DNA of 64,000 bases from Patescibacteria group bacterium. Lineage in GTDB: Bacteria; Patescibacteriota; Microgenomatia; UBA10105; UBA927. Where the stretch lies: contig DATKGN010000004.1 in the NCBI GenBank assembly GCA_035510735.1, forward strand, positions 92,705 through 156,704, in the 5' to 3' direction. The notes below the pieces were generated by a model, which ran no database searches, was not told where the DNA came from, and saw only the letters and a list, made by a program, of their open reading frames with translations. Below, piece after piece: positions 6,886 to 63,260 of the stretch. Each line of letters opens with the position of its first letter. The stretch's first letter is position 1. The translations under genes and the position numbers were made by a program.

Positions 6886-7470
6886 TTACTGAAGTTTTTG
6901 TTTCAATTCGCTTATTTTATTCTCCAATAAATTATTGGTATATAAAACTGGACGATCTGATCCTCTGGTGAGATAAATACTATCGTTTTCTTCATCAAAG
7001 CCGAATCCGAATTTTGATTCAACTTTCCCTTTCTTTGTTTTTATTTCATTTAATAATGTTCCCATTTCGTTATCGGAAAATAGCAACGATTTGAACCCCC
7101 ACCATTTATCCGGTGTGGTTTTGTCCAGTTTTATTCCGTTGCCTCTGGATAAGATCGGATATGGAGTGAAGAAAACGTAATAATCTGCAATACCTTCTTT
7201 GTATTTATAGAGAAAATTATTAAACCATGAAGAATGTTGATGGACGATTCGGTTGTTCCGTTTTGACGGGATTCCTTCGTATGATCGTGAACTTTTAATC
7301 TGAATGGTTAACGTTTTTTTCGTTTTGAGGTTATGGATTATCAAATCAACACCCTCCTGCTGTCGTGATAACGGAATATACAGAGAATACCCGTCTTTCT
7401 TTTTCAGTTCATTTTGCAGTATCAATGCAACCTTGTATTCGGAGAACGGTAAGGTGAATATAGAATCCAT
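6886..7470 (-). CDS. hypothetical protein, possible PD-(D/E)XK nuclease fold
   Basis: QEGVDLII...TLTIQIKSS resembles an E-D-(E/Q)xK core. No other recognisable motif. Confidence 0.35.
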   Translation of the reverse strand: MDSIFTLPFSEYKVALILQNELKKKDGYSLYIPLSRQQEGVDLIIHNLKTKKTLTIQIKSSRSYEGIPSKRNNRIVHQHSSWFNNFLYKYKEGIADYYVFFTPYPILSRGNGIKLDKTTPDKWWGFKSLLFSDNEMGTLLNEIKTKKGKVESKFGFGFDEENDSIYLTRGSDRPVLYTNNLLENKISELKQKLQ

Positions 7471-7528
7471 ATTTAGTGTATATTATACCGCTAAATAGAC
7501 TTTAGAGTGTATAATCAAGGGGATTTTT

Positions 7529-14159: not shown

Positions 14160-14220
14160 TTCGTACGCAGACTTGCCTGTCTACCTGTGCAGACAGGCGG
14201 AGGTCAGGGGAGTATACTTC
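14160..14220. repeat. intergenic hairpin + promoter-like module, copy 1 (CCTGTCTACCTGTGCAGACAGG ... GGGGAGTATACT)
   Basis: Inverted repeat cctgtct/agacagg at about 14177-14198 followed by ggggagtatact, 24 nt upstream of the DUF2207 ATG. Near-identical copies at about 19272, 22882 and 24533. Confidence 0.6.
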
Positions 14221-14233
14221 AAATAGCTTCCGT

Positions 14234-15934: not shown

Positions 15935-16009
15935 GCCGCTCGCCATCACGAACCCGTTCGTTAACGAATTACGTATTTCTCTCCGAACGCTACGAATACC
16001 CTTTTCCTT

Positions 16010-16693
16010 TTACGGGCAGTGGAGCTGCGTTTTGCAGGCGGTTTGCGCGGCGCCTGCAGGCAAACTATTACACGCACTGCATGCGGCATTCGCTGTGCCC
16101 GTGCCGGTTGCTGATGTGCCAGTCGTTGCGGCACCCGGTATCGTGATTGTTGTGAATTTAATATCGGTCGGAAGTGTAAATTGGGACATGTGAGGAGCCC
16201 AATCGGTGCACGAATAGGAAACGGTTTCGTTCATACCGACCCCCTGGTTTGCACCGGGCGTTGTACTTGGTTTTGGTGCATCGGCAAGGGCGATCTTAAA
16301 TCCCATTTTCGTCATACCCGTCCAGACGTAACTGTATCCGGAGTCAACAATCATGTGGGCCGTTATGGTGTTTCCCTGACTCTTTGTAGTAAAGTCCCCG
16401 CTCATTTTTCCCTGCACGGTATATACCGTGCCCGTGGTGTTTCCGTCTTGAGTGGTAAACGTACATGAGACTGGTTTACCGATCGACAAAAGATTTTTCA
16501 GCGTCCCCTGTGTTTGCGCCGCAGTCGCAGTCGTTACCATCGCGGTTGTTCCCGTAGGATTCGCGGTCGGACTTACCTGTGTTAACGTTTCTGGTGCGGG
16601 CGCTTTCATTGATTTACCCAGCATCATATACGCGCCGCCTCCGAGAAGAAGGAGGAGAATTATTACGATAGCAACAACAATTTTTTTATTCAT
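16010..16693 (-). CDS. secreted/anchored Thr-rich hypothetical protein
   Basis: N-terminal TM helix (MNKKIVVAIVIILLLLL) and T-rich linkers. Start at internal ATG. Confidence 0.45.
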   Translation of the reverse strand: MNKKIVVAIVIILLLLLGGGAYMMLGKSMKAPAPETLTQVSPTANPTGTTAMVTTATAAQTQGTLKNLLSIGKPVSCTFTTQDGNTTGTVYTVQGKMSGDFTTKSQGNTITAHMIVDSGYSYVWTGMTKMGFKIALADAPKPSTTPGANQGVGMNETVSYSCTDWAPHMSQFTLPTDIKFTTITIPGAATTGTSATGTGTANAACSACNSLPAGAAQTACKTQLHCP

Positions 16694-19271: not shown

Positions 19272-19330
19272 ATGTATTTCGAACTAAGCTTGCCTGTCTA
19301 CCTGCGCAGACAGGCGTAGGTAGGGGATTT
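19272..19330. repeat. intergenic hairpin module, copy 2
   Basis: tgtatttcgaactaagcttgcctgtctacctgcgcagacaggcgtaggtagggg. The inverted repeat is identical to copy 1 apart from one loop base. Confidence 0.6.
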
Positions 19331-19426
19331 TGCCTCATTATCTCTAAAACACCGTGAATAGAGCCTATTTTTCACCCAAATTCATGATAAATTGACAAAA
19401 CACCGTGAATATGATAGTATACAGCC

Positions 19427-22881: not shown

Positions 22882-22945
22882 CGAAGTGAGCGTGAGCCTG
22901 CCCGCCGAAGCCGGTGCTTTGTCTGCGTAGGCAGGGGGAGTATAA
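22882..22945. repeat. intergenic hairpin + promoter-like module, copy 3 (variant stem)
   Basis: gaagtgagcgtgagcctgcccgccgaagccggtgctttgtctgcgtaggcagggggagtataattt. Shares gagcgtgagc, the hairpin and GGGGGAGTATAATTT with copy 4. Confidence 0.55.
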
Positions 22946-22979
22946 TTTGGGAGAATATTAATAGTAATATTTTACTTGT

Positions 22980-24532: not shown

Positions 24533-24598
24533 TGTATTTCGAGCGTGAGCTTGCCTGTCTACCTGTGCAGACAGGCGCAGCCAGGGGGAGTATAATTT
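24533..24598. repeat. intergenic hairpin + promoter-like module, copy 4
   Basis: gtgtatttcgagcgtgagcttgcctgtctacctgtgcagacaggcgcagccagggggagtataatttt. The TATAAT lies about 13 nt before the RadC-like ATG. Confidence 0.6.
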
Positions 24599-24608
24599 TA
24601 ATGTATTT

Positions 24609-42779: not shown

Positions 42780-43841
42780 CTAGTTACTACTGATTCCTTT
42801 CACATATGTATCAAAAAATGCTATTGATCGTTCCATTGCAACCGTGAAATTCGGGTCGGCGATATTGTGATCTCCTCCCGGATAATTGTAATATTCAACC
42901 GTTTTCCCCAGCGCCGAAAGCTTATTTTTCAGGCTTACCGAAAATGCGACGGGAACCTCTTCATCGCTACCGCCCGTATGAATCTGGATGGGGATCGTTA
43001 TATCGGCGAGGTGGCTCGTCGGATCGATCGCCTGCCAGAAGGTAGGATTCGTTTGCGGCGTGCCGTATTGGTCGGTCAACCGTTTGCGGTAGTTATTTCT
43101 ATTGGCCAGCTCAGGCGGTGGGGGTTGATACGTTACCTGCCGCTGCCAGTTGTTCATAATATCATCGTAAGACCCGACGACGCCTCCCCAGATAACCGCG
43201 GCTTTCACGTCTTTTGTATCAACAACAATATCCCGGAGCGTAATGTTACCGCCCATTGAGTGTCCCCACATACCGATTTTTTTGGGATCCGCGTCTTTAT
43301 AGTGTTTCAGTGAGGAGAGAGCATTTAAGACGTCGATTGCGTAGGCGGGAGAATAGTACGCGCCCTCCGGTGTACCCTGTGAAGAACCGTTACCGCGGTA
43401 GTCAGATTTAAAGACGATGTATCCACTTCTTGCGATAGCTGCAACATATGCGACATATCGCTCTGTTGTACGGTAAATCGTTGGGGGAATGTAGCCGTGG
43501 TTAAAAATAATGACCGGCCAGCCTGTCGCCGGTTTCACGCCCGTGGGAACGGTGAGAAGTCCGTAAATTTTGAGTCCCTCTGACAGGTATGACGCGATAT
43601 ATTGATGATAATTTGTTCCGTCCGGTAACGTTTGTTCAATAGTAAGATCGCTTCCTGGATATGATTGTTTCCTCATAGTTGTTATGGCAAGCGGATTGTC
43701 AATTTCCTTTTGGGCGGGGGACGGGGCAGGCGATATCTCATGTGCTCCGGTTTTCACCGTCATAAATTTCCGCTGATATATAAATCCGAAGACCGCAAAG
43801 ACTGCAACTGTCCCCGCTATTACAACCCAAACTTTACTCAT
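42780..43841 (-). CDS. alpha/beta hydrolase (prolyl-oligopeptidase/dienelactone-hydrolase-like) with N-terminal TM anchor
   Basis: GHSMGG nucleophile elbow. Start moved to the internal ATG (MSKVW) to avoid a 100-nt overlap with the ABC permease gene. Coordinates may be off by 1 nt. Confidence 0.55.
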   Translation of the reverse strand: MSKVWVVIAGTVAVFAVFGFIYQRKFMTVKTGAHEISPAPSPAQKEIDNPLAITTMRKQSYPGSDLTIEQTLPDGTNYHQYIASYLSEGLKIYGLLTVPTGVKPATGWPVIIFNHGYIPPTIYRTTERYVAYVAAIARSGYIVFKSDYRGNGSSQGTPEGAYYSPAYAIDVLNALSSLKHYKDADPKKIGMWGHSMGGNITLRDIVVDTKDVKAAVIWGGVVGSYDDIMNNWQRQVTYQPPPPELANRNNYRKRLTDQYGTPQTNPTFWQAIDPTSHLADITIPIQIHTGGSDEEVPVAFSVSLKNKLSALGKTVEYYNYPGGDHNIADPNFTVAMERSIAFFDTYVKGISSN

Positions 43842-45057
43842 ATCGGAGAGCCTCAATCGGCTGCAAATCCGATGCTTTCTTTGCCGGGTACCAACCAAAG
43901 AGAATGCCAATAGCTGCCGAAACGATGAATGCAAGGAATATTGAAGAGAATGAAACGATAAAAAGAGAGCCCGAGATGGTCGCGATGATATACGAGGCCG
44001 CGATACCGAAAATAATGCCGATGGCGCCGCCAGTAAATGTCAGCATGATGGATTCGGATAAAAACTGCATCGTTATCGTATTTTTCTTTGCCCCGAGTGC
44101 TTTCCGAAGTCCGATTTCCCGTGTCCGTTCCGTTACTGTGACAAGCATAATGTTCATAATGCCGATACCGCCGACCAGAAGCGAGATAGCGGCAATTCCG
44201 GATAAGAGCGATGTGAACGTTCCCGTGGTAGCCGAAGCCGTGTTTAGAATGTCCTGTTGCGACATTATCGAAAAATCAGCCTGTGTGGGATCGTTAAATT
44301 TGTGGCGTGCGAGGAGAAAATAACCGACTTCATTCTGAGCCTGTGTCATGACATCAGAGCTTTTTGCCTCAAGCGCGATCGAGCTTAAATAGTCAACACC
44401 AAAAATTTCCTTCATCGCCGTTGTGAGAGGGACCATCACTATATCATCCTGATTCATAAATCCGGTTCCTCCTTTAGACTGGGTAATACCGATGATCGTA
44501 AATGACTGGCCGCTGATCCTAATTGTTTGTCCGATTGGTGTGGCGCCGTCGCCGAATAAGTCGCTTACGACCTGAGGACCGATAACCGCGACCTTTGTGT
44601 CTCCGTCAACGTCGCGTTGCGTAATAAAACTGCCGGTATCAATTGTGACTTTATGGACATCAGTGTAGACAGGCGTGACGCCGACTATCTGAGTATTCGT
44701 ATTATTACTGCCGGTTGTGACCTGGCTTCTCCGCTGTAATTCGGGTGAAACGGTTTTTATGGTCGTAATTGCCGCCGACGTTTTAATCGCGTTTGCATCA
44801 TCAAGCGTGAGCGTCGTGCCGCCGCCTGATGCCCCCCTTACCGCGCCGGTCCGCTGGGCGGTCGGCTGAATTGTTAGGAGATTTGCGCCCAATGATTGGA
44901 TTTGATTTTGGACGGACTGCTGTGTTGCCTGTCCCAATGAAACGAGAGCGATGACGCTGCCGATGCCGATGACAATGCCGAGGATCGCAAGGCCTGTCCG
45001 CATTTTATTGACCGTGAGTGTGCCGAAGCTTTCCTGTATGAGTTCAATTGGTTCCAT
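43834..45057 (-). CDS. ABC transporter permease, MacB/FtsX-type
   Basis: N-terminal TM, large periplasmic domain and C-terminal FtsX-like 3-TM bundle. Confidence 0.8.
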   Translation of the reverse strand: MEPIELIQESFGTLTVNKMRTGLAILGIVIGIGSVIALVSLGQATQQSVQNQIQSLGANLLTIQPTAQRTGAVRGASGGGTTLTLDDANAIKTSAAITTIKTVSPELQRRSQVTTGSNNTNTQIVGVTPVYTDVHKVTIDTGSFITQRDVDGDTKVAVIGPQVVSDLFGDGATPIGQTIRISGQSFTIIGITQSKGGTGFMNQDDIVMVPLTTAMKEIFGVDYLSSIALEAKSSDVMTQAQNEVGYFLLARHKFNDPTQADFSIMSQQDILNTASATTGTFTSLLSGIAAISLLVGGIGIMNIMLVTVTERTREIGLRKALGAKKNTITMQFLSESIMLTFTGGAIGIIFGIAASYIIATISGSLFIVSFSSIFLAFIVSAAIGILFGWYPAKKASDLQPIEALRYE

Positions 45058-45060
45058 AGT

Positions 45061-45774
45061 TTAATGTATTACCTTTTGTCGTTTGTGATTGGAACTATCT
45101 TCTATGATTTTTCCGTCGCGGACATGAATAATCCGTTTTGCGTGTTGTGCTATATCCGGCTCATGGGTAATCATGACGATCGTATGTCCTTCATTGTTTA
45201 ACTTCTGGAAAATTGCCATTACTTCTTCAGCCTGGGCGCTTGCGATATTTCCCGTCGGTTCATCGGCAAGAATAATTGCCGGATTTAAGACGAGCGCACG
45301 CGCAATCGCGACCCGTTGCTGCTGTCCTCCGGATATCTGATTTGATGTATGGTGGATTCGGTCCCCCAAGCCAACCATGGTCAGAAATTTTATGGCGGTT
45401 GGCTCCCGCTCTTCCCTCGGTACGCCTGCATACATCATAGGGAGCATGACGTTCCGGAGCACTGTTGTACGCGGCAACAGATTAAACGCCTGAAAGACAA
45501 ATCCTATTTTTCGGTTCCTGATATCTGCAAGTTTGTCGTCAGTCAGATTCTCGACATTTTCTCCGTCTAATATATATTCTCCCTTCGTTGGTAAATCGAG
45601 TGCCCCGAGTATATGCATAAGTGTTGATTTGCCCGATCCTGATGGACCCATGATCGCAACAAATTCGCTTTTATTGATATTAAAGGAGACGTCATCCAGG
45701 GCGACTGTTTCGACCGAATCCATTTTATAAATTTTCGACAGATGATGCGTCTCAATGATTGAATGTACGGCCAT
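45061..45774 (-). CDS. ABC transporter ATP-binding protein (MacB/LolD-type)
   Basis: Walker A GPSGSGKST, signature LSGGQQQRVAIARAL, Walker B ILADEPT. Confidence 0.85.
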   Translation of the reverse strand: MAVHSIIETHHLSKIYKMDSVETVALDDVSFNINKSEFVAIMGPSGSGKSTLMHILGALDLPTKGEYILDGENVENLTDDKLADIRNRKIGFVFQAFNLLPRTTVLRNVMLPMMYAGVPREEREPTAIKFLTMVGLGDRIHHTSNQISGGQQQRVAIARALVLNPAIILADEPTGNIASAQAEEVMAIFQKLNNEGHTIVMITHEPDIAQHAKRIIHVRDGKIIEDSSNHKRQKVIH

Positions 45775-45780
45775 GTGGTA

Positions 45781-47118
45781 TTATCCTCCTACCCGTCGTA
45801 CGGTCGTTCCGCCGCCTCCGCCGCCGCCTCCGCCAAATCCGCGGCCTCCCAGCGCACTGAATGGGGAAGTGCCTGTTGAGGTTGTCGTTGTCGCGCCACC
45901 GATAACAGCTGTTACGACTGTATCACCATCGCTTAATCCTGATGTGATTTCCGTTTGGGTATCATTAGAGTCGCCGATCGTGACCGGCACCGAACTCATC
46001 ACGCCGTTTTTGAGTACCCTGACCGTTGTCGCGCCATTGGTCGTTACGACGGCTGCCGACGGGACAAGGAGTACATTATCTTTGACGTTTGTAATAATTT
46101 TGGCGTCAATCGCCATATTTGAGTATATGCCGTTCGGCGCCGAGTCAAGTTTGATATATGCCGGATACGTTGTCACTCCCGAACTGACAACGCCCGAGGT
46201 ATCAATGCTTACAATGACCCCGGTAAATGTTTTACTAGGAAATGCATCCATGGTAAGCGTTGCTTTATTATTGACGGCCACTTTCGGTGCATCGGTTTCG
46301 TTTATATTAACAATAGCAACAGGAGTAGCGGCGGTTTTGATATTTGCTATCCTCTGTGATGTTGAAGTGCCTGAAGAATTTGTCTGTGCGGTCAATACGG
46401 AGCCAACCTGAAGCGAGAGGCCGTTTAAGACTCCTGAAATCGGTGCGTAAATGGTCGGTGATGATTGCAAATAACTTGCCCACGCGCTACCCACCGATGT
46501 TTGCGCCGCAGTTATGGCGCCTTGTTGGTTTTTGTATTTAGCTTCTGTAGACAACCAGTCATCGTTCGTGCTTATATATTGCGGAAGCGTTCTATTCCCT
46601 GTATTCGGTGAACCGTCAGGGTTTGTGAATGTAGAGTTTTGCGCAATATTCATATACGTATTCCATTGGGTAAACATTGTTGATTGGAGCGCAAACATTG
46701 CGGCATTTGCGTTATCGAGGTTATTTTTTGCACCCTGATAACTCGCAAGGGCCTGAGCACTTCTCTGTTTTCCGTCCATATCAAGGTCAACGTCGGCAAT
46801 TGCATCGCCGGATTTCACCGTTTGTCCGTTTTGTACGTAAATTTTTGTAACGACCCCGGATGTCTGTGTCGTCACCTGGGCGCTATTAGCGCTGGATATA
46901 TTGCCTGATGCTGCGACCGAGGTAACGAGCGTACCCTTCGTTGCGGTGTCCGTTTGATATGTTGGCTGTTTTGTCGTATTACCGATGGTTTTTGAGTAGA
47001 TAAACCATCCGAGTGCTGCAAGAAGAAGGACGATAAAAATTTTTGTTGCTGCGGGACTTTTGATAAACCAATCCTTTATACCGCTAAGTTTTTCCATCAA
47101 TGAGTTCTTTTGATTCAT
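45781..47118 (-). CDS. HlyD/MacA-family periplasmic adaptor with poly-Gly C-terminal tail
   Basis: N-terminal TM, coiled-coil and beta-barrel regions of membrane-fusion proteins. Ends GGRGFGGGGGGGGGTTVRRVGG. Confidence 0.7.
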   Translation of the reverse strand: MNQKNSLMEKLSGIKDWFIKSPAATKIFIVLLLAALGWFIYSKTIGNTTKQPTYQTDTATKGTLVTSVAASGNISSANSAQVTTQTSGVVTKIYVQNGQTVKSGDAIADVDLDMDGKQRSAQALASYQGAKNNLDNANAAMFALQSTMFTQWNTYMNIAQNSTFTNPDGSPNTGNRTLPQYISTNDDWLSTEAKYKNQQGAITAAQTSVGSAWASYLQSSPTIYAPISGVLNGLSLQVGSVLTAQTNSSGTSTSQRIANIKTAATPVAIVNINETDAPKVAVNNKATLTMDAFPSKTFTGVIVSIDTSGVVSSGVTTYPAYIKLDSAPNGIYSNMAIDAKIITNVKDNVLLVPSAAVVTTNGATTVRVLKNGVMSSVPVTIGDSNDTQTEITSGLSDGDTVVTAVIGGATTTTSTGTSPFSALGGRGFGGGGGGGGGTTVRRVGG

Positions 47119-47174
47119 AGATAAAATGAATGATACATACGTAAACTGAAAGCAAGCTGAATCCGATAAGCGAT

Positions 47175-48218
47175 TTATGCCAATTTTCTTTGATGGATTG
47201 GCAAATGGACAATAAACGTACTCCCGTGACCTGATTTGCTTTCGACGCTTATAGATCCATGATGCACGTCAGTGATTTTTTTTGCAATAGATAAGCCAAG
47301 ACCGTAGCCTCCTTCTTGCTCTCTAGCGCGAGCTGTATCTGCGCGATAAAACCTATCAAAAATATGAGGAATGTCTTTTTGTGCAATACCGATTCCCTCA
47401 TCATGAACGCGTATCGTGATGTCTCCGTCGGTACGCTTTGCGACAACTGTGATCTTAGTTTTTCCATCAGAGTATTTAATTGCGTTATCTAAGAGAATAA
47501 CCAACAGGTCGATGAGATATTCTTTACTTCCTGTCATCGCAAGCCCGTTTGTTTGATTTTGTATTGTAACCTGCTTCACTTTTGCCTGTGGCGTCACACG
47601 CTGTATGGCTCCGGTCGTAATCTCCGAGAGTGATACCGTAGTAAATGCAATCTTTACATTTGGTTGTTGATATTGAACAAGTTCAAGCAGCGAGTCTGAC
47701 AGCGATTGTAGTTTATTTACCTGTCCTATGCTTCCTGAGAGGAGTTCTCTTGCGGTCGCAAGCGTAAGTTTTTTATCACGAAGATTTACCTCAATTGAAC
47801 TTTTGAGCGCGGTAAGCGGTGTCCGCAGTTCATGTGATGCATCGGATATAAACCGGTTTTGCTCGTCAACCATCTGTTGAATAGGCGTGAGCGTCCGGCC
47901 GGCTAATATATATCCGAGGCCGCCGGATATAAAGAAAATTGCTCCATTGACGACAAACAAGATTAGTAGTACCCGGTGTTCAGTTTCCAGAACCAGATCG
48001 GGATCCATCGTAATAGGTGGCGGAGGGAGTTGGGCGCTACCGGGTTGGACTAATCCCTCATCCAATAAGCGCCGTTCGATTCGGGTGCGCTGGGCCCGTG
48101 CAAACCGGTCAACTTCACTTGTGAGTACGCGATATATGACCACACTAAACGCAATACTGACAATCATGATGATGAGGAGATACCATGCGGTTAATTTTAG
48201 CCGTGCAGATCGAAACAT
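47175..48218 (-). CDS. sensor histidine kinase
   Basis: TM N-terminus. HisKA H-box SHELRTPL. HATPase G boxes (GGYGLGLSI). Confidence 0.8.
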   Translation of the reverse strand: MFRSARLKLTAWYLLIIMIVSIAFSVVIYRVLTSEVDRFARAQRTRIERRLLDEGLVQPGSAQLPPPPITMDPDLVLETEHRVLLILFVVNGAIFFISGGLGYILAGRTLTPIQQMVDEQNRFISDASHELRTPLTALKSSIEVNLRDKKLTLATARELLSGSIGQVNKLQSLSDSLLELVQYQQPNVKIAFTTVSLSEITTGAIQRVTPQAKVKQVTIQNQTNGLAMTGSKEYLIDLLVILLDNAIKYSDGKTKITVVAKRTDGDITIRVHDEGIGIAQKDIPHIFDRFYRADTARAREQEGGYGLGLSIAKKITDVHHGSISVESKSGHGSTFIVHLPIHQRKLA

Positions 48219-48225
48219 ATTGTTG

Positions 48226-48900
48226 TTAACTTCCTATTTTATACCCAAAACCGCGCAGCGTCAGGAGAAGCGGTTTTTTGTTTTTAAACGGATTGTCGAT
48301 TTTATTTCTGAGATTCCGCATATAGACCTCCACGGTATTCGGGAGAATGTTTGCATCATAATCCCACACGTGTGCAATAATTTGCTCTTTTGTGAGTATT
48401 TGATTTGCATGGCGCATGAGGTATTCAAGGAGGGCAAATTCTTTGCTAGACAGGAAAATGGCTATATCTCCTCTTTTTACCTCAAATGATTGGGTATTCA
48501 TAGTGAGGTCTGACACCACCAGGGTGGTACTGAGCGTGCTTTTCGGACGCCTGATTAACGCTCTAATCCTTGCGAGCATTTCTTCAAATGAAAACGGTTT
48601 TGTAAGATAATCATCGGCTCCTGAATCAAGGCCGGTGATCTTATCCTGAATTTGCCCTTTGGCGGTGAGAATGAGAATCGGTGTATGGATCCGTTTGGCG
48701 CGGAGCTCCTTGCAGATGGAGAGACCATTCATACCGGGGAGCATGAGATCAAGGATCATGAGGTCGTATTCCTCAGTTGAAGCCAAATCAAATCCCTCCG
48801 TACCCGTATAGGCCACATCGACCGCATATTTTTCCTGTTCGAGGCCTTTCTTTATTGATGTTGCAATAGTGTGTTCGTCTTCAATAACGAGAATTCTCAT
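48226..48900 (-). CDS. OmpR-family response regulator
   Basis: Receiver domain (MRILVIEDE...DLMLPG) plus winged-helix C-terminus. Start at internal ATG. Confidence 0.8.
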   Translation of the reverse strand: MRILVIEDEHTIATSIKKGLEQEKYAVDVAYTGTEGFDLASTEEYDLMILDLMLPGMNGLSICKELRAKRIHTPILILTAKGQIQDKITGLDSGADDYLTKPFSFEEMLARIRALIRRPKSTLSTTLVVSDLTMNTQSFEVKRGDIAIFLSSKEFALLEYLMRHANQILTKEQIIAHVWDYDANILPNTVEVYMRNLRNKIDNPFKNKKPLLLTLRGFGYKIGS

Positions 48901-49110
48901 ACAACCCGTATTATACTCAATTAGCTGAATATAAGCTGAAAAATAGGGGTATCCAGGCAATTTTTCTTTACTTGGATTATTACCTGTGGGCATCGGGCGC
49001 GGATTCTTTCGATCGTGTAGATAATCTATAATTTCAGGAAAAACAGATCAGTGTTTGCTGATTAACAGCTATTTGTTTTACTATAAAGACGGTAGCGGTT
49101 ATTATTTCTT

Positions 49111-55793: not shown

Positions 55794-56091
55794 TCCCCTG
55801 TAGCTCAACGGTAGAGCGGCTTCCTGTCACAAGGCAGCGCCAAATAGCAATATTTGGATGAACATCGGGCTAATTCGGGGGACTCCTGCACCGCGTTGGT
55901 TTAGGACAATCCCGAGCTAAATTTCTTTTGCAACGCAAATGGACTCGTCCTGAGCGAGGTCGAAGGATAAATGTGTAGAGACTATATACCCGACTCCCGA
56001 TTTTATCGGGATGATGAGATAGTCCAGTCTTTTTGGTAACAGAAAGCAAACTGTAAGAAGAAGGTTGCAGGTTCGAATCCTGCCGGGGGAG
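55794..56091 (+). tRNA. tRNA-Asn(GUU) interrupted by a group I intron (exons 55794-55827 and 56054-56091)
   Basis: The joined exons give a canonical 72-nt cloverleaf. Acceptor UCCCCUG/CGGGGGA, D-stem GCUC/GAGC, anticodon stem GCUUC/GAAGA, loop CUGUUAA, T-arm GCAGG-UUCGAAU-CCUGC, discriminator G. Very similar to E. coli tRNA-Asn. Confidence 0.7.
55828..56053 (+). ncRNA. group I (self-splicing-type) intron in the tRNA-Asn anticodon loop, ORF-less, about 226 nt
   Basis: 5' exon ends in U and intron ends in G. P1 hairpin cugu/gcag with a U.G at the splice site. P-like aauucggggga. P7 candidate ggacu (55941-45) with aguCC in the S-like element gagauaguCC (56016-25). 55842-55855 aaatagcaatattt resembles the start of the Tetrahymena LSU intron. 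Confidence 0.6.
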
Positions 56092-56118
56092 CAATTTCTA
56101 CGGATTTCTTCGGATTTT
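56086..56118. repeat. 33-bp direct repeat, copy A (overlaps tRNA-Asn 3' end), putative attL-like site
   Basis: ggggagcaatttctacggatttcttcggatttt. Identical copy at 61616-61648. Confidence 0.7.
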
Positions 56119-56143
56119 ATTACCCTCTGATATACTGCTATTA

Positions 56144-57919
56144 GTGAATAAAGAACTCCTCGAAATACTTTCAGGGTTTAAGCGAACGGTACGGCTCATG
56201 GATAGGTCAGAGAAGATCACGTTGGTTGTGGCCTCCGTTCTCATGCTTATAACCGGCGTGCTGACCAACTTGCCTGCAATAATTTTAGGCCGGTTAGTCG
56301 ACACATTGGTCGGTCATCCGAGTATTCAATTTAGTGCAGCGATTCCGTTTATCGGTCTCATTGTTGTCATCATCATTATCCGTGAGGTGCTCACAGTTAT
56401 CAGAAAATATCTTGTGGAAAACATTGCTGCGCTTACGGAAAAGAAACAAACCGTCGCCGTCATTGACCATCTCTTAAAAACAGATATAGCTGTGATAAAT
56501 GAACAACAGATTGGCTCATTACATGGAAAGGTATTCCGCTCCATTGAAGGTCTGGTGAGTCTGATTAAACTTGGTTTTCTGGATTTTTTTCCCGTATTTT
56601 TTAGTGGCATTGCGGCTATAGCAATAGCATTTTTGCAGAAGCCGCTCCTGGCGTCGGTGATGATACTCGTCATACCCACCGGTCTTTTTATCATCATAAA
56701 ACAAATATCTTCACAAAAGGGCTTACGGGTCGCATTTCTTCGGAAACAGGAGACGATTGATGGAGCTGTGGTAGAAATGCTGGGAGGCCTGGAAACGGTG
56801 AGGGTCGCCAACACCACTGATCAGGAGGTTGGGAAAATCGAGCTCGTCGCGGAAGAGTTACGTAAAAAAGAGATTAAGCATCATATAGCCATGGCCCTGT
56901 TTGATTCTGCAAAATACCTGAATGAGGGATTTTTCTATATTTTAGTTATCAGTCTATCCATACTGTTTTCAGCTCAAGGACTCATCAGCCGCGGCGACAT
57001 ACTTGTATATTCCATACTTTTTTTGAGTATCACCGGCCCACTGCGGGAGATTCACCGGATCCTTGATGAGGCCCATGAAAGTTCCATCAGGGTAAATGAC
57101 TTATATGATCTATTAGGAGAGCCTATTGATGAATCATTTAAAACTACCGCAGGAGGAGTGTCTTCTTTGCCAAAAAGAAAAAATGTCATTGAAATTAATA
57201 AATTATCCTTTAGCTATCCGACAAAGAAGATTAAAGTTTTGGACGGTATCAACTTAACTATTAAATCAGGAGAAAAGATTGGTATCGCAGGTGCCTCTGG
57301 ATGTGGAAAGAGCACACTCATAAAAATCCTTTTACGGCTAGTCCACGGTTATTCCGGCAATGTTACTCTTTTTGGCAAAGACTTGCAGAGTATAACGAGG
57401 GATGAAATTGGCCAGAAAATTGCCTACGTCCCGCAAAAAGATTACATTTTTTCCGGAACGATAAAAGAAAATATCATATATGGGTGTTTCCGGACAGATG
57501 TTTCCGAAGAAGAAGTTATATCTGCGGCTAAGAAGGCTCATGTTTATAAAGAAATCGTTGATTCCTTGGGCGGTTTGAATGGCAGAGTTGGAGAAAATGG
57601 TAATAATCTCAGCGGTGGCCAAAAACAGAGGTTGGCAATAGCCAGGCTGATACTAAAGTCACCGGAGTTATTTATCTTTGATGAAGCAACTTCCGCCCTT
57701 GATAATACCAATGAAGATCTGATTCAGAAAAATATAGAAGAGCTCTATAAGGATAAAACGATGATTACGATTGCACATCGGCTAACCACGCTCAAAAATA
57801 CCGACCGAATATTTGTGCTTGGTCAAGGGCATATAGTGCAAGAAGGAACGTTTGAGGAGTTATCCCATAAAAAGGGGCTTTTCCAGGATTTTTTACAGCA
57901 AAGGATAGAAAAGGTCTAA
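56144..57919 (+). CDS. ABC transporter ATP-binding/permease fusion (type I exporter, peptide/bacteriocin-exporter-like without peptidase domain)
   Basis: 6-TM N-terminal domain. Walker A GASGCGKST, LSGGQKQRLAIARL, Walker B IFDEATS. Confidence 0.8.
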   Translation: MNKELLEILSGFKRTVRLMDRSEKITLVVASVLMLITGVLTNLPAIILGRLVDTLVGHPSIQFSAAIPFIGLIVVIIIIREVLTVIRKYLVENIAALTEKKQTVAVIDHLLKTDIAVINEQQIGSLHGKVFRSIEGLVSLIKLGFLDFFPVFFSGIAAIAIAFLQKPLLASVMILVIPTGLFIIIKQISSQKGLRVAFLRKQETIDGAVVEMLGGLETVRVANTTDQEVGKIELVAEELRKKEIKHHIAMALFDSAKYLNEGFFYILVISLSILFSAQGLISRGDILVYSILFLSITGPLREIHRILDEAHESSIRVNDLYDLLGEPIDESFKTTAGGVSSLPKRKNVIEINKLSFSYPTKKIKVLDGINLTIKSGEKIGIAGASGCGKSTLIKILLRLVHGYSGNVTLFGKDLQSITRDEIGQKIAYVPQKDYIFSGTIKENIIYGCFRTDVSEEEVISAAKKAHVYKEIVDSLGGLNGRVGENGNNLSGGQKQRLAIARLILKSPELFIFDEATSALDNTNEDLIQKNIEELYKDKTMITIAHRLTTLKNTDRIFVLGQGHIVQEGTFEELSHKKGLFQDFLQQRIEKV

Positions 57920-58158
57920 GCAAGTGCGATTCCACTTTGTAATTTCTTTATCTCCTCCCACCGTTGTCTCAATTCACCAATATATCGCAAGTCCTGAAAT
58001 GCCTGAATAATACAGTCGAATTGAAAAGAATCAACCATTATAGTAATTCGAGGTACGGGGAGCAAAATTATTTGGAGCATATTGACAACCTATTTCAGTA
58101 ATCGCGGATGGACGTTCGAACCTCTGATATAATTGAGTAGCAGATTTCATTCCGACGT

Positions 58159-58677
58159 ATGGCAAGTGGTGACCTTATTTTAAAAGCTAAACAACAATCA
58201 ACGTATATTCTATTGATAATTGGACTACTTCTTATAATTGCCTCGCTATTTGTGGCGTTTATTAGCGGATTGCAATTTACGACTTGGTATTTATTAAGTA
58301 TTGGAATAATTTTTGTTATTTTTTCCATCCTTTATCTTGCTAACCCAGGGTATTTGTTGTTAACAAAGGAAGGAATAACAATAAAATATTCTTTATTTAA
58401 AAAATTGCAGACATATAAATGGACTGATATTAAAGATTTTAAAATTTTTGAGAAAAAATTAAATCCGAGAAATGTAACTCTTACAAAAGTTGTAGGCTAT
58501 GTGTTTACAGAAAAATATGTAAATCAATTAGATGGAATTTCTAAATTAGATGCAGAATTTAGCAGAAAGCACAGTATGGAGGATGGTGCGGTTGGATATG
58601 GAGAAAATTATGGCATGGAGGTAACAGGATCGTGCACATTACTTAATCAATGGAGTGCAAAATATAGTAAGGTATAA
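58159..58677 (+). CDS. small membrane protein, possible bacterial PH-like domain
   Basis: Two N-terminal TM helices followed by a soluble beta-rich segment. Confidence 0.35.
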   Translation: MASGDLILKAKQQSTYILLIIGLLLIIASLFVAFISGLQFTTWYLLSIGIIFVIFSILYLANPGYLLLTKEGITIKYSLFKKLQTYKWTDIKDFKIFEKKLNPRNVTLTKVVGYVFTEKYVNQLDGISKLDAEFSRKHSMEDGAVGYGENYGMEVTGSCTLLNQWSAKYSKV

Positions 58678-58801
58678 GTTATTTTTAATCGCCTAATTAG
58701 TATAATAAATAGTCCGAACATCCTCTACCGCTTGGAGCATTTTAATTTTGGAGCATATTGATGCCCCAATTCTTATTACAGTTTACTTCCAAAGGCGATT
58801 A

Positions 58802-59569
58802 TTATTGTTGTTTCTTAACATCTTTGCAGGTAATTGTTAGGTAGCCAATAAAAAGAATAATAAGAATAGTTAAGACTATACTCGTTCGTCCAGTACCAAA
58901 TCCAATACCACCCATATCTGAAGTTCGTCCAAACCAGTCAGCAAATGATGCACCGAACGGTCGAGTCACAATATAGGCAGCCCAGAAAGTCAGTACTTCA
59001 TTAACGCGAAATAGTTTGTGTGCTACCAATGGCAGAGCAAACAATATTGCAAATAGAATTCCTGAAGTTAAATAACCTAAATTTAACGTGATTGCAGTCA
59101 TATCACCTGTTGCAGTACCAAGCGCAAACGTCACTATGACAGTAGCCCAGTAAAATAATTCGCGGCGTGGAGTGTAAATACTATGGATAGAGAGAGTTTT
59201 CTCAGTTTTGTACCAAAAAATAAAGATAATAGTCAATACAATTGCGAAGGATATGGTTGAGATTAGATACGGAATACCTAAAACTATGTGCATCACGTCA
59301 GCAGTCATAGTCCCAAATATGGCAACCATGGTGACAGTGAGCCAATAAATCCAGGCAACGTATTTCCGAACCGAAAACTGTAGCACAATGGCGACAGCAA
59401 ATCCAATGCCTCCTACTACTACAGCGATAACTGGGTTAATATGATGGACCAAGAAGTCAGAAGTTGACTCACCCATTGCCGTCGTGAGTAGTATCATGAT
59501 CCAGAAGAAGATGGTAATTTGGGGTACCTTTAGAAATCCTTGTGTCGTTAGTATCTTTTTAAGATTCAT
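58802..59569 (-). CDS. polytopic membrane protein (COG4705-like, uncharacterised)
   Basis: About 8 TM helices. No catalytic motif. Confidence 0.4.
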   Translation of the reverse strand: MNLKKILTTQGFLKVPQITIFFWIMILLTTAMGESTSDFLVHHINPVIAVVVGGIGFAVAIVLQFSVRKYVAWIYWLTVTMVAIFGTMTADVMHIVLGIPYLISTISFAIVLTIIFIFWYKTEKTLSIHSIYTPRRELFYWATVIVTFALGTATGDMTAITLNLGYLTSGILFAILFALPLVAHKLFRVNEVLTFWAAYIVTRPFGASFADWFGRTSDMGGIGFGTGRTSIVLTILIILFIGYLTITCKDVKKQQ

Positions 59570-59662
59570 TTGTAATATGTGAAATATCTGACGGTTATTT
59601 ACCGATGGAATAATAATACCCTTTCTGTGATCGTATCTCTAGAGCAAAGCAGAAGTGCTATA

Positions 59663-59833
59663 TCAGAAATTTAAGATTAAATAGTTTCGAACATCGTCTA
59701 CTGCTCGGAGCAAAAGTTGATTATCGGCGTAATTTAGTATTGTATCAAAGGGTTTTATAGCTTCATAGTGCACCGTTTCACCATCTACCTTAAGGTTCTG
59801 AAGTACAAGTTTAACTAACTGACGTTTTTTCAT
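59663..59833 (-). CDS. small ORF (56 aa), hypothetical. An upstream in-frame start-less remnant suggests a decayed gene
   Basis: ATG preceded by AAGGTG. Translation MKKRQLVKLVLQNLKVDGETVHYEAIKPFDTILNYADNQLLLRAVDDVRNYLILNF. Not in the supplied ORF track (<60 aa). Confidence 0.2.
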   Translation of the reverse strand: MKKRQLVKLVLQNLKVDGETVHYEAIKPFDTILNYADNQLLLRAVDDVRNYLILNF

Positions 59834-60163
59834 CACCTTCAGAACGGATGAACAACCATATGCCCGTTTGGATAGTTCTAGCAGGTATAGCCGTAATGTA
59901 GTATTTATCTTCAGCCTCTTGAAGCTTAAATAGGCGGGTATCTCGTTCGGTTATTTTATTCCGTAGCGACTGGTAAAACTTGTCGTACTCATCATCAGTA
60001 ATTCTACCGCCAAAAACATGTCTCTATATCCTGTCCTGAAGAATATATATAATACTTCTCATTACATAACGCGTGTCTGCATTATTCCGGTGACACAAAA
60101 TATTGTTATTTTAAAGCTGACGCCATTAAGCTTGCACACATGTTCCATAAAGCCTAAAAACAT

Positions 60164-61333
60164 ATGAAATTTCATTTCACGAATGGGAGTATTCGTAAAT
60201 TATTGCCTAGTAAATATCATTTGTTGTTGTCTATTTTTTCAATCTTCATTACCCTGGCTTTATTGGAAATTGTTTTGCAAATTGACTTCAGGCTAAAACA
60301 AAAATTTCAGTCTTCCCCGGTTCTCACGGAAACAGAAGAGATGCTCAGTGAATATGAAAATATAGAATATGAGTATCGCCCATATATTTTATGGAGAGCA
60401 AAGCCTAACGTTTACACAAAATATTACAGTACGAATAGTCTGGGTTTGCGCGGTAACGAATTCCAAAAAGAAAAGAGTCCAAATGTTTTTCGGATTATTC
60501 TCTTAGGGGGATCCGCGGCCTGGGGCTATGACGCCGGTTCGAATGAAAATACAATTAGCGTTCAATTAGAAAATATACTTCAAAAACAATTCTCTGAATC
60601 AAATAAGAAAATAGAAATTTATAATTTTGCAGAAAGTGGATATACCTCTTCACAGGAGATTATACTCTGGAATGAAATAAGCGATTATAATCCGGATCTT
60701 GTTATCCACTATACCGGTTATAATGACATTTTTGCAGGAGTTTACAGACTGAAGCCGGGATGGAATCACCATTTTATTCAAGAAGATTTGATCCTTTCAA
60801 AGGATAATTGGCATATCATTTTTACCTTGCTCAGTGTGCAAATTGATACTATGCTTCAAAATTTTCGATTATATGATTTGATTAAAGGAAAATTTTTTAG
60901 CGCCCCTCGCATAACTTCAATCGCTAGCAATGGTACAAGGACCTATTCTAATTTAGGAGAAATAGCTAATATCTTCGTGAAGAATATGTTTTTCTCTCAA
61001 CAGATAGCAAAAAGCAAAAACATCCGTTTCCTGATTGTATTGCAACCGTCAATTTTTACGGATCAAAAAATATTAACGAACCAAGAAAAGAAAATCTTTG
61101 ACGAATTTAACACAGCGTTTCCTTTGTCAGCAAACTACTTTCGCGACGGTTATCAAGATTTAGCCAACGGTCTCACACAGCTTGATATTCCCTTTATGGA
61201 CGGTTCAACCTTTTTTAAGGACGAACAAAATACGATATATTATGATACGGTTCATTATACTGACACAGGAAATACACAGGTTGCAGAATCGCTGGCAAAT
61301 TTAATTATTAGCGAAGGACTCCTTGACAAATGA
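60164..61333 (+). CDS. SGNH/GDSL-like hydrolase-fold protein with N-terminal TM anchor
   Basis: N-terminal TM. IILLGGSAAWG block resembling SGNH block I. C-terminal DxxH-like DTVHYT. Confidence 0.45.
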   Translation: MKFHFTNGSIRKLLPSKYHLLLSIFSIFITLALLEIVLQIDFRLKQKFQSSPVLTETEEMLSEYENIEYEYRPYILWRAKPNVYTKYYSTNSLGLRGNEFQKEKSPNVFRIILLGGSAAWGYDAGSNENTISVQLENILQKQFSESNKKIEIYNFAESGYTSSQEIILWNEISDYNPDLVIHYTGYNDIFAGVYRLKPGWNHHFIQEDLILSKDNWHIIFTLLSVQIDTMLQNFRLYDLIKGKFFSAPRITSIASNGTRTYSNLGEIANIFVKNMFFSQQIAKSKNIRFLIVLQPSIFTDQKILTNQEKKIFDEFNTAFPLSANYFRDGYQDLANGLTQLDIPFMDGSTFFKDEQNTIYYDTVHYTDTGNTQVAESLANLIISEGLLDK

Positions 61334-61615
61334 GATAAGAAATATACCTCTTACTTTATACCTATTCTATTTCGTTTCAGAATTGAATTGATATGTGTAG
61401 ATATAATCGGGTCTATGCTTTTTTTAGCTGCCCGCCCTAGAACCAGATAATTGATGCTCATTTGGACGAGGTAGTAAACGCACTTGTAAAAGTCGTAGAG
61501 ATAACATCAAAGGGTCAGGCGTAAGCTGGTTGTAGTTGGAAGGTTTCAAATACCGTCTGAATGTTCTGTAAGCTAAAACCAAACTCTATTTTATGATTAC
61601 GGAACATATCTACTA

Positions 61616-61648
61616 GGGGAGCAATTTCTACGGATTTCTTCGGATTTT
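61616..61648. repeat. 33-bp direct repeat, copy B (putative attR-like site)
   Basis: Identical to 56086-56118. Lies at the far edge of the AT-rich 5.5-kb segment. Confidence 0.7.
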
Positions 61649-61671
61649 CTTGCTTCTGTTATAATTTCTCC

Positions 61672-62589
61672 ATGAGAACAACAGATAATATCGCAGTTAT
61701 AGATAAGTATTTATCAATAGTTAAGAGTTATTATCCTGATGTTTCTGCCGATACCATAACGGTATTTCAGGATGGGTATGACCACGACGTTTTATTGATA
61801 AATACGCGTCAGGCATTTCGATTTCCTCGCACGAAAGATCACGGGAAAAAAGATCTTGTAGAAAATATATTTTTACGTGAGTTCGCGCCGTCTTCTCCGA
61901 TCACGGTACAAGAGATGACCGGTCAAGCTGATCCAAAAACCGGTATTGAGTATCAAATGTACCGATACATACAAGGCGTTCAACTCTCAACGAAAATCGC
62001 TTCAACTCTTACAGAACAGGAATTAGCAAACATAGCGATAGACATGGGAAAATTTTTAACTACACTGCACTCTTTTTCGCTCGTTGAAGCACGCTCGATG
62101 GGGATGGACGAACTTGATCCTAAGACGTATTGGAAGTACTTTGAAAGCCTTTTTGGAAAAATCAGTGTGACAATCTTCTCGTTATTATCAACAAACGAAC
62201 AACGTTGGATAGAGGAGCTTGTAAAAGATTACGTCAGCATAACAAGAGACAACCCTTTCGAGTTAAGAGTAACTCATTCCGATCTTCTTGCAGAACATAT
62301 AGTTGTTGATGAAACAACCCACAAGCTTAATGGTGTTATTGATTTCTCTTTGCGTATCGCTGATCCTGCAAATGACTTTAAATTTTTTGATAGATATGCA
62401 CCCATTTTCCTCCAAACAGTCTACAAGAACTATTTACCTGTAGATGAATATTTTGATCAGAGGAGAAGATTTTATGCAGCGTATGTTCCGGTTGTTAATC
62501 TTTATGAATCGATTGAAAGGAAGGACAACAAAATAACAGAGATATATCTAACTCAATTGAAAGAATATATTTTTCAAAGTAGCTTATAG
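61672..62589 (+). CDS. aminoglycoside-phosphotransferase (APH)-family kinase
   Basis: Brenner motif HSDLLAEHIVV and downstream GVIDFS (DFG-like) characteristic of the APH/choline-kinase fold. Confidence 0.65.
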   Translation: MRTTDNIAVIDKYLSIVKSYYPDVSADTITVFQDGYDHDVLLINTRQAFRFPRTKDHGKKDLVENIFLREFAPSSPITVQEMTGQADPKTGIEYQMYRYIQGVQLSTKIASTLTEQELANIAIDMGKFLTTLHSFSLVEARSMGMDELDPKTYWKYFESLFGKISVTIFSLLSTNEQRWIEELVKDYVSITRDNPFELRVTHSDLLAEHIVVDETTHKLNGVIDFSLRIADPANDFKFFDRYAPIFLQTVYKNYLPVDEYFDQRRRFYAAYVPVVNLYESIERKDNKITEIYLTQLKEYIFQSSL

Positions 62590-62613: not shown

Positions 62614-63201
62614 CTATGGATTTGATACTTTTTGGCCCCGGATGGGTTCGTAACTCACTTTTTCCTCTCCATCAACAAGTATTTTTTTAAACTGTGCGGG
62701 CAACGCATTCGCTTTGTGCATTAATGGTCCATCTTGGAGATTGAAATGGATGTGTGGTTGAGTCGTATTTCCGGTATTACCGCATAAACCTATTACATCA
62801 CCCTGCTTGACCTTATCGCCAATTTTTACTCGTATTGAATTATGTTTGAAATGACATAGAAGACTATATTCTCCGTTTTGGTGATCGATAATAATTGCAT
62901 TCCCTACACCGACGCTCCGGTCACGTTCTCCCGGAAGTACGTCAATTGACCCGTTAATGATTTGTATAACTAATCCGTCACCCGGAGCGAGCACTTCTTT
63001 CCCAAAAACCTTAAACTCCACAAGTTTTATTTCTTTTCCTGTATTTTCCATTCGAAAATCGTATGCATACAGTTGGTTTTGGGGGCCTTGCTCAGCTGGG
63101 CGTACATGATTATTTGTATCAGTAGTTCTGCCGCCGTTACTTACTAACCATGTACCGTGAAACGGAAGAATAAGATGTGTTTTTGTTTGGTAATCCATCA
63201 T
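62614..63201 (-). CDS. M23/LytM-family peptidase
   Basis: HxxxD...GNTGNTTQPHIHF motif set of M23 metallopeptidases. Confidence 0.75.
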   Translation of the reverse strand: MMDYQTKTHLILPFHGTWLVSNGGRTTDTNNHVRPAEQGPQNQLYAYDFRMENTGKEIKLVEFKVFGKEVLAPGDGLVIQIINGSIDVLPGERDRSVGVGNAIIIDHQNGEYSLLCHFKHNSIRVKIGDKVKQGDVIGLCGNTGNTTQPHIHFNLQDGPLMHKANALPAQFKKILVDGEEKVSYEPIRGQKVSNP

Positions 63202-63260
63202 TTAGATTATACAGTAATAGGTCCGAACATCCTCTACAGTTTGGAGCGCATTGGACTAAA

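Follow-up and report, generated by a model that had tools for sequence, protein, structure and literature searches.

Genes for tRNAs are hot spots at which genomic islands accrete in tandem and at which integrase-less cis-mobilizable elements (CIMEs) are found, as in the asn-tRNA islands of enterobacteria and the CIMEs of streptococci. Two further systems in which a short sequence recurs next to unrelated genes are chromosomal integrons (IntI, attI, attC) and propagated or 'mobile' promoters, i.e. identical upstream regions before unrelated genes. Patescibacteria have tiny genomes with few recognised mobile elements, and how they gain and shuffle accessory genes is therefore poorly understood. 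Here we describe a locus in a 64 000-nucleotide stretch of contig DATKGN010000004.1 from a Patescibacteria group bacterium (the whole stretch is referred to as the window, and positions are those of the window unless a locus number is given), in which a tRNA-Asn gene is followed by a series of small AT-rich gene modules and by two copies of a 33-bp direct repeat. The reading that we favour, with a probability of roughly 55%, is that the tRNA-Asn is the anchor of an AT-rich, variable array built from small modules with separate promoters, and that the 33-bp repeat is the best-preserved form of a junction unit heading such modules. For this unit, conservation, linkage to tRNA-Asn, occurrence in arrays and a position next to promoters were all observed, and relatives of the organism diverge exactly at the tRNA 3' end, where insertions duplicating the end of the tRNA occur in a sister species.

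The tRNA-Asn gene and the junction unit

The window contains exactly two perfect copies of the 33-nt repeat GGGGAGCAATTTCTACGGATTTCTTCGGATTTT, one at 56086-56118 and the other at 61616-61648 on the plus strand. The first overlaps the last 6 nt of a tRNA-Asn gene, and all of this agrees with a preliminary description of this DNA. The expected number of chance matches for a 33-mer is zero, even with three mismatches tolerated, and a repeat search stretched the 33-bp match to 36 nt at 97% identity. Interrupted as it is by a group I intron, the tRNA gene escaped ARAGORN, which reported none in the window. The intron was recognised by Rfam RF00028 at 55813-56046 (74 bits, E 6e-17) and occupies 55828-56053 on the plus strand, between anticodon positions 35 and 36. 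In silico splicing of the 5' exon (55794-55827) to the 3' exon (56054-56092) yielded a canonical 73-nt tRNA-Asn(GTT), i.e. with the anticodon GUU, that is 100% identical to the intron-less tRNA of the relatives L064 and L065 (L numbers denote loci collected for comparison), while the tRNA-Asn of a third relative, L068, carries an intron shorter than that of the window. Repeat copy 1 covers the last five acceptor-stem bases and the discriminator (56086-56091). A group I intron at the same position, 35/36, of Patescibacteria tRNA-Asn is reported by Nakagawa et al. (2026; PMC13011429), whose abstract does not touch on the DNA downstream; the intron-split gene of the window, which standard tRNA finders miss, is of this already known kind.

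The tRNA tail GGGGAGCA and the adjoining ATTTCTACGGATTTCTTCGGATTTT together make up the junction unit, whose parts are the last tRNA-Asn bases (GGGGAG), a CA, and a 25-nt motif holding two 10-bp direct repeats (ACGGATTTCT and TCGGATTTT). Copy 1 of the unit (56086-56118, plus strand) was scored at 45.6 bits by nhmmer, and copy 2 extends over 61597-61648 on the plus strand, with a left arm ttacggaacatatctacta ahead of GGGGAGCA and the motif and with the repeat copy at 61616-61648 included. The 22-nt core TCTACGGATTTCTTCGGATTTT was found as an exact match in eight other species-representative genomes (Gottesmanbacteria, Amesbacteria and other Patescibacteria) and in 39 metagenome contigs. After removal of near-identical contigs, the unit was present at 35 distinct loci, the window included; this collection was seeded by the exact 22-mer, and the readable sequence was 8-20 kb around each match. 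A profile built from the copies detected degenerate copies nearby on the same strand, five to six in L007/L020/L031, three in L026, L030/L045 and L035, and two in L008. The units of these arrays lie 0.7-2 kb apart with one or two genes in between, and the 10-bp repeat is present three times instead of twice in some copies. Both window copies match the family consensus, so that their perfect identity is not in itself a sign of recent duplication.

A complete tRNA-Asn, either intron-less or with a group I intron, lies upstream of the unit and on the same strand at 14 of the 35 loci, and partial or atypical tRNA-Asn 3' ends were seen at two more; many of the loci lacking a tRNA are short contigs with little upstream sequence. 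The sole other tRNA across the 35 loci is one tRNA-Ser, and it is followed by a tRNA-Asn 3' remnant. Directly before the motif, GGAGC or a near variant was present in 32 of 33 distinct exact-core units that do not adjoin a tRNA. As GGAGC is the 3' tail of tRNA-Asn and is retained away from the tRNA, the unit is best described as a tRNA-Asn tail joined to the motif, the two having been copied to places away from the tRNA. A literature search for a motif or array linked to tRNA-Asn in Patescibacteria yielded no paper.

These observations do not fit the earlier proposal that the repeat is a private attL/attR pair, as its 22-nt core recurs at 35 distinct loci, often in arrays. The preliminary description had itself named a widespread promoter- or UTR-like motif as the outcome that would speak against an island, and such a motif is indeed what was found across genomes, though tied to tRNA-Asn neighbourhoods. 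The thought that the repeat is an artefact of assembly or of chance draws on breaks in short-read contigs (L002 and L006) at, or close to, the repeat and the tRNA, but it was refuted by the independent recovery of the same arrangement in ENA, JGI and Logan assemblies of five samples, and it is equally at odds with the absence of expected chance matches and with the conservation of the motif in many other organisms; we give it practically no credence.

Some loci of the collection showed peculiarities of their own. In L041 (∼40-110) and L011 (3922-4010), tRNA-Asn 3' halves carry ∼30-nt insertions in the T-loop region, and L011 has in addition a displaced second tRNA-Asn 3' half 20 nt past the intact tRNA; these altered 3' halves resemble remnants of earlier integrations elsewhere within the tRNA. 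Genes of the GIY-YIG type lie between tRNA-Asn and unit in L011 and right before the unit in L029. At both ends of L047 (6455 nt), the unit and the first ∼250 nt of the same gene were found, 97-99% identical, with differing left arms, as judged against L016. A circular element was considered for L047 and dismissed, the arms being different; a rearrangement or duplication or an assembly join may lie behind it, and the contig is not interpretable.

Divergence at the tRNA-Asn 3' end and the modules of the window

Orthologues of the 221-aa protein encoded next to the tRNA were identified at 81% identity in L064-L067, at 73% in L068 (a 1.22-Mb contig) and at 59% in L070, all of them in dnaG-rpoD-kinase-GH18 synteny. 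In all of them, L064, L065 and L068 included, nucleotide homology to the window stops at position 56092, which is the 3' end of the tRNA-Asn, and the three sets of relatives sharing the dnaG-rpoD-GH18-221-aa flank carry different genes past this point. Divergence at the tRNA end was also evident between L034 and L010, which have identical tRNAs and of which L010 shows a 14-nt duplication, and between L040 and L050, again with identical tRNAs.

L064 and L065 encode an identical 221-aa protein and thus represent two strains. L065 reads from the tRNA directly into AGGTTGTATTTAGAACG, whereas in L064 (5887-6302 of its reverse complement, compared with the contig end of L065) the tRNA is followed by a 398-bp segment with a GIY-YIG gene (PF01541, 99 aa), by a second AATCCTGCCGGGGGAGCA, and only then by AGGTTGTATTTAGAACG. 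The two strains are an occupied/empty pair with an 18-bp target duplication (AATCCTGCCGGGGGAGCA) that lies wholly inside the tRNA. In L064, a third copy of the tRNA end is located 1.5 kb further on, and junctions of the 'class c' type described below follow most of the small genes. In L068, the gene for a 541-aa large serine recombinase (7423-9048, locus coordinates) abuts the tRNA, its called 3' end running antisense over the 3' exon and part of the intron, and an HTH_17 excisionase-like gene is found 8 kb from it; the element extends beyond the readable 10 kb. In this lineage, then, insertions do favour the 3' end of tRNA-Asn as a hot spot. By analogy with the sister strains and the recombinase element of L068, the array of the window may itself have grown by insertion at the tRNA end. 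Right-hand synteny with the genome of the window resumes at a NUDIX gene (position ∼10 275 of L001), which puts the outer limit of the variable region beyond the window, ∼11 kb from the tRNA.

In the window, junction unit copy 1 is followed by an extended −10 box, TGATATACT (56128-56136, plus strand), 7 nt ahead of the GTG of an ABC exporter gene (56144-57919, plus strand; Pfam ABC_membrane and ABC_tran), which constitutes module 1. A conserved 40-aa micro-ORF (open reading frame; MVDSFQFDCIIQAFQDLRYIGELRQRWEEIKKLQ..., 57916-58038, minus strand), 81% identical at the nucleotide level to a block that occurs in another context in L057, forms part of a 'class b' junction, of which a remnant, ccattatagtaattcgaggtacGGGGAGCA, is present at 58034-58064 on the plus strand without the 25-nt motif and is of the type also seen in L032, L007, L008, L030 and L061. 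Module 2 is the gene of a 172-aa membrane protein (58159-58677, plus strand; Pfam scan; 30% G+C), behind which lies a 'class c' junction, AGTCCGAACATCCTCTACCGCTTGGAGCA (58712-58739, plus strand; nhmmer 25.3 bits; repeat family D2), that is 89% identical to a junction of L064 sitting behind an unrelated gene. Module 3, a DUF347 membrane protein gene (58802-59569; PF03988, 5.5e-47), is on the minus strand and is separated by another class c junction (59684-59712, plus strand; nhmmer 26.5 bits) from module 4, a GDSL/SGNH-like hydrolase gene (60164-61333, plus strand; Pfam). Copy 2 of the unit then precedes a second extended −10 box, TGTTATAAT (61657-61665, plus strand), 6 nt ahead of the ATG of module 5, an aminoglycoside phosphotransferase (APH)-family gene (61672-62589, plus strand; PF01636), which shares its module with a peptidase M23 gene (62614-63201, minus strand; Pfam). 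The last junction detected, again of class c (63220-63247, plus strand), coincides with the end of the low-G+C stretch.

The DNA between the two repeat copies is thus a mosaic of at least four modules (ABC exporter, 172-aa protein, DUF347 protein and SGNH hydrolase) with degenerate junctions between them, in which GGAGCA is kept and the motif is lost. The AT-rich array passes the second repeat copy and runs through the APH and M23 genes to ∼63 250. The gene content given in the preliminary description was borne out by Pfam, which gave the ABC exporter, the 172-aa membrane protein, the DUF347 protein and the GDSL/SGNH hydrolase. Between the second class c junction and the SGNH gene, ∼450 nt (59714-60163) hold short ORFs only, none of which matched a family and one of which, a 57-aa ORF on the minus strand, spans the junction; this stretch is probably decayed coding sequence.

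The consensus of the class c junctions is AGTCCGAACATCCTCTACnGCTCGGAGCA, and a profile of it gave 31 matches across all loci at E < 0.05, every one of them on the strand of the tRNA and the motif. Many of these junctions lie a few nucleotides past a stop codon, for instance 7 nt after the APH orthologue of L058, and in L070 the tRNA-Asn and four class c junctions are inverted together. The peptide frame that class c would suggest runs into stop codons in every case in which a motif comes next, judging from a direct reading of the frames. Class c junctions fold no better than shuffled sequences, and a derivation of their arms from the tRNA T-arm was retained as no more than a resemblance, the alignment scores to the tRNA 3' half not being significant for most units. 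The micro-ORF (36-42 aa, ..IIQxFQDLRYIGELRQRWxEIKKLQ..) is found at class b junctions, reading away from GGGGAGCA, in the window, at 2937-3093 of L057, and in the intergenic region 6791-6987 of L064 (reverse-complement coordinates). It belongs to no Pfam or NCBIfam family and matched 102 cluster representatives, nearly all of them short proteins, at the C-terminal end. Terminal inverted repeats of a transposon-like element, suggested by a comparison of the class b arm with sequences directly after some tRNAs, were also rejected, as the likeness comes from TATA-like −10 boxes on either strand and from the minus-strand micro-ORF.

A single 5.5-kb island at the tRNA-Asn 3' end, with the 33-bp repeats as attL and attR and with an integrase that was lost or acts in trans, as in a CIME, would account for a perfect direct repeat overlapping the tRNA end, for the lack of the region in syntenic relatives and for the lack of an integrase inside it, and it would match the insertions with target duplication that a sister species shows at the same site. 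However, both copies equal the consensus of a motif present at 35 distinct loci, only 6 nt of the repeat lie within the tRNA compared with an 18-nt sister duplication wholly within it, and junction remnants occur both internally (four counted, among them 58034-58064, 58712-58739 and 59684-59712) and externally (one, 63220-63247). In addition, no empty site was found among five contigs of this population, and the first gene is a conserved ABC exporter of the Candidate Phyla Radiation (CPR) with near-genome G+C. The base composition points the same way. The G+C content of the islet, at 37.7% compared with 44.5% upstream, agrees with its description as AT-rich, but the exporter has 41.7%, G+C falls only beyond ∼57 kb, the low values continue for 1.6 kb past copy 2 to ∼63 250, and other 5.5-kb stretches upstream reach values as low as 36.1%, so that the compositional limits do not match the repeats. 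A single island is therefore an improbable account: of the att-flanked element first proposed, the hot spot at the tRNA-Asn end and the non-syntenic nature of the region were upheld, but the repeat does not bound one 5.5-kb element.

Promoters, gene blocks and recombinases

A box of the form TGnTATA(A/C)T was located downstream of the motif in 20 of 43 distinct units, at distances of 7-23 nt (9-13 nt in 17 of them, with a mode of 11), and in 16 of the 20 boxed units a start codon opening a long ORF follows 6-10 nt after the box (mode 6). Both window copies conform to this arrangement: the unit sits 9 and 8 bp ahead of the TG of the extended −10 box in copies 1 and 2, respectively. With these boxes 6-7 nt before start codons, the window units would occupy about −24 to −56 of two predicted leaderless-type promoters, and the exporter, its GTG 7 nt after the extended −10, appears from the sequence to have a leaderless GTG start. 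Only six genes in the whole window show this arrangement of box and start. The −10 box and GTG start of the exporter are conserved in an 87% orthologue, L061, whose homology begins at the −10 box (56128) and excludes the motif.

The genes of the array were also encountered in other settings. The ABC exporter is ≥70% identical across Micro- and Parcubacteria and is a highly conserved CPR gene rather than typical island cargo; in L061 it is flanked on both sides by ∼70-nt class b junctions. A conserved synteny of tRNA-Asn, unit and ABC exporter was considered and abandoned, as orthologues of 76-87% identity sit in unrelated contexts without tRNA or motif. In front of the APH orthologue of L057 the full unit is conserved, including the same left arm, with different genes upstream; the orthologue of L058 has a degenerate unit, with a class c junction after its stop codon, and that of L054 has no motif. 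A DHFR-like gene and an AAA kinase gene were each found with and without the motif. Since orthologues keep their own −10 box where the motif is missing, gene and −10 box can be regarded as one block and the motif as a separate boundary block.

In the array reading, which we prefer, the array would have been built by repeated insertion at the tRNA-Asn 3' end, with a recombinase supplied in trans, and the GGAGCA of the units would be a scar of the insertion process. The motif could act in transcription, as an activator site or upstream promoter element, or mark the junction at which recombination takes place, or do both. A role in transcription is suggested by its place relative to the −10 box, by the variable number of direct repeats and by its conservation with APH, and a role in recombination by the tRNA tail, the linkage to tRNA-Asn, the same-strand arrays and the blocks of gene homology that start just past the motif.

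A purely cis-regulatory repeat, either an upstream promoter element or a regulator site on the 10-bp repeats (e.g. for an OmpR/PhoB-type activator replacing the −35), would have no part in gene movement, and the array would then be accessory DNA reshuffled by homologous recombination. This would explain the consistent position relative to TGnTATA(A/C)T and start codon in about half of the units, the variation of the 10-bp repeats between two and three, the retention of unit and left arm with APH across species despite differing upstream genes, the lack of hairpin or dyad symmetry, and the lack of a recombinase nearby. It leaves unexplained, however, the tRNA-Asn tail on the units and the presence of tRNA-Asn or a remnant just upstream and on the same strand at 16 of 35 loci; about half of the units have no −10 box at that distance, and genes retain their own −10 box when the motif is absent. 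We regard it as a serious minority view.

With regard to regulators, an operon at 43834-48993 on the minus strand of the window encodes an OmpR-type response regulator (48226-48993), a histidine kinase, a membrane-fusion protein and a MacB-type ABC transporter and is conserved in L068; there is no motif copy near it, and hence no tie to the 10-bp direct repeats could be drawn. A second repeat family was noticed at 14172-14224, 19289-19341, 22925-22948 and 24550-24602, just upstream of plus-strand genes, in the form of a hairpin (GCCTGTCT..AGACAGGC) followed by GGGGAGTATA(C/A)T. Similar hairpins occur ahead of the ABC exporter orthologue in the Shapirobacteria locus L059, and the family looks like another promoter-associated repeat.

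Several results weigh against the array reading as a whole or against one of the two roles of the motif within it. Neither Pfam nor PHROGs assigned an integrase or recombinase family to any islet protein, as the preliminary description had maintained; precomputed Pfam annotation of the next 10 kb contained no recombinase, and a motif scan of ∼250 kb of related loci revealed no recombinase and no tyrosine-recombinase box, detection in the loci being by sequence motifs or by precomputed Pfam where present. No circular junction was found for the window array. The search for an empty-site allele, proposed earlier as a check, gave no tRNA-unit-APH junction among the five contigs with this APH, in all of which the SGNH side lies upstream, and the one clean occupied/empty pair belongs to the sister species and concerns another insertion, that of 398 bp. 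Neither a hairpin nor dyad symmetry, which usual recombinase core sites or attC would have, is present in the unit, its single-stranded DNA fold being 0 kcal/mol. As to transcription, no register of the motif gave a good −35 hexamer with a constant 16-18-bp spacer, and the spacing from motif to −10 is variable; with no credible −35, the motif, if active in transcription, would be an upstream or activator site. The occurrence of the same genes with or without the motif indicates that genes can be expressed, and can reside in an array, when it is missing, and the arrays of the nearest relatives (L064-L070) are entirely without the 25-nt motif. Finally, seeding with the exact 22-mer has skewed the sample to well-kept copies.

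A scan for recombinase motifs among the window ORFs picked out nothing but a single match, short and weak and located far upstream (15781-16143). The anchor has no intI beside it, as the gene diverging from the tRNA encodes the 221-aa protein, which lacks a recombinase domain. The 17-mer at the tRNA 3' end matched only phage tRNA clusters and one Mu-like contig without integrase. A phage or plasmid origin was dismissed, as the motif is absent from IMG/VR and the mobile-element search of the islet proteins suggested by the preliminary description came back without any such function in PHROGs. A palindrome of the attC kind, sought between the arms upstream of GGAGCA and the reverse complement of the motif, was likewise given up (summed z ∼2.2 over 49 units, single units not significant).

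Comparison with described systems

The data point to a conserved 33-nt unit that ties tRNA-Asn to arrays of separately promoted accessory genes, among them an exporter, aminoglycoside-phosphotransferase-type kinases, hydrolases and glyoxalase-like proteins. If the array reading is true, it would define a lineage-wide hot spot of gene gain whose sequence tag makes it traceable in any assembly. For organisms without any mapped promoter, it would also supply a candidate architecture, a leaderless promoter with an extended −10 and a conserved motif upstream. If the motif is only regulatory, the result is a more modest one, an ordinary tRNA-linked variable region that shares a promoter element.

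Chromosomal integrons resemble the locus in their same-strand single-gene modules, their recurrent short element, their one fixed anchor and their accessory cargo (here kinases, hydrolases, glyoxalase-like proteins and exporters). The same-strand organisation is seen in L007/L020/L031, where five to six units are each followed by one or two genes; in the window it is only partial, as the DUF347 and M23 genes are on the opposite strand. This likeness would allow a stronger interpretation, an integron-like gene-capture platform at the tRNA-Asn 3' end of Microgenomates-type Patescibacteria, in which promoter-bearing cassettes of one or two genes are inserted and rearranged by a recombinase encoded elsewhere and in which the unit (tRNA-like arm, GGAGCA and 25-nt motif) serves both as recombination site and as the upstream half of a promoter. 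The locus differs from integrons in the lack of intI by the anchor, an anchor that is a tRNA gene, the lack of attC hairpins, modules with promoters of their own, and modules some of which are inverted or contain two genes. We offer the platform interpretation tentatively and think it doubtful as it stands.

As with mobile promoters, one upstream sequence of ∼33-85 nt recurs before genes that are unrelated, and its distance to −10 box and start codon is fixed. Unlike them, the unit described here bears the tail of tRNA-Asn and clusters downstream of that gene instead of being scattered along with insertion sequences.

In comparison with tRNA hot spots and CIMEs, the modules of this locus are small, mostly of one or two genes (0.4-2 kb), and the unit, of which 27 nt fall beyond the tRNA and only 6 nt within it, is conserved across genera and is coupled to promoters, with no cognate integrase identified for the genome. 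In other respects the two correspond, since in both cases insertion takes place at the tRNA 3' end and duplicates it, as in the sister strains, repeat copies occur in series, the modules carry no recombinase, and the region is absent from relatives.

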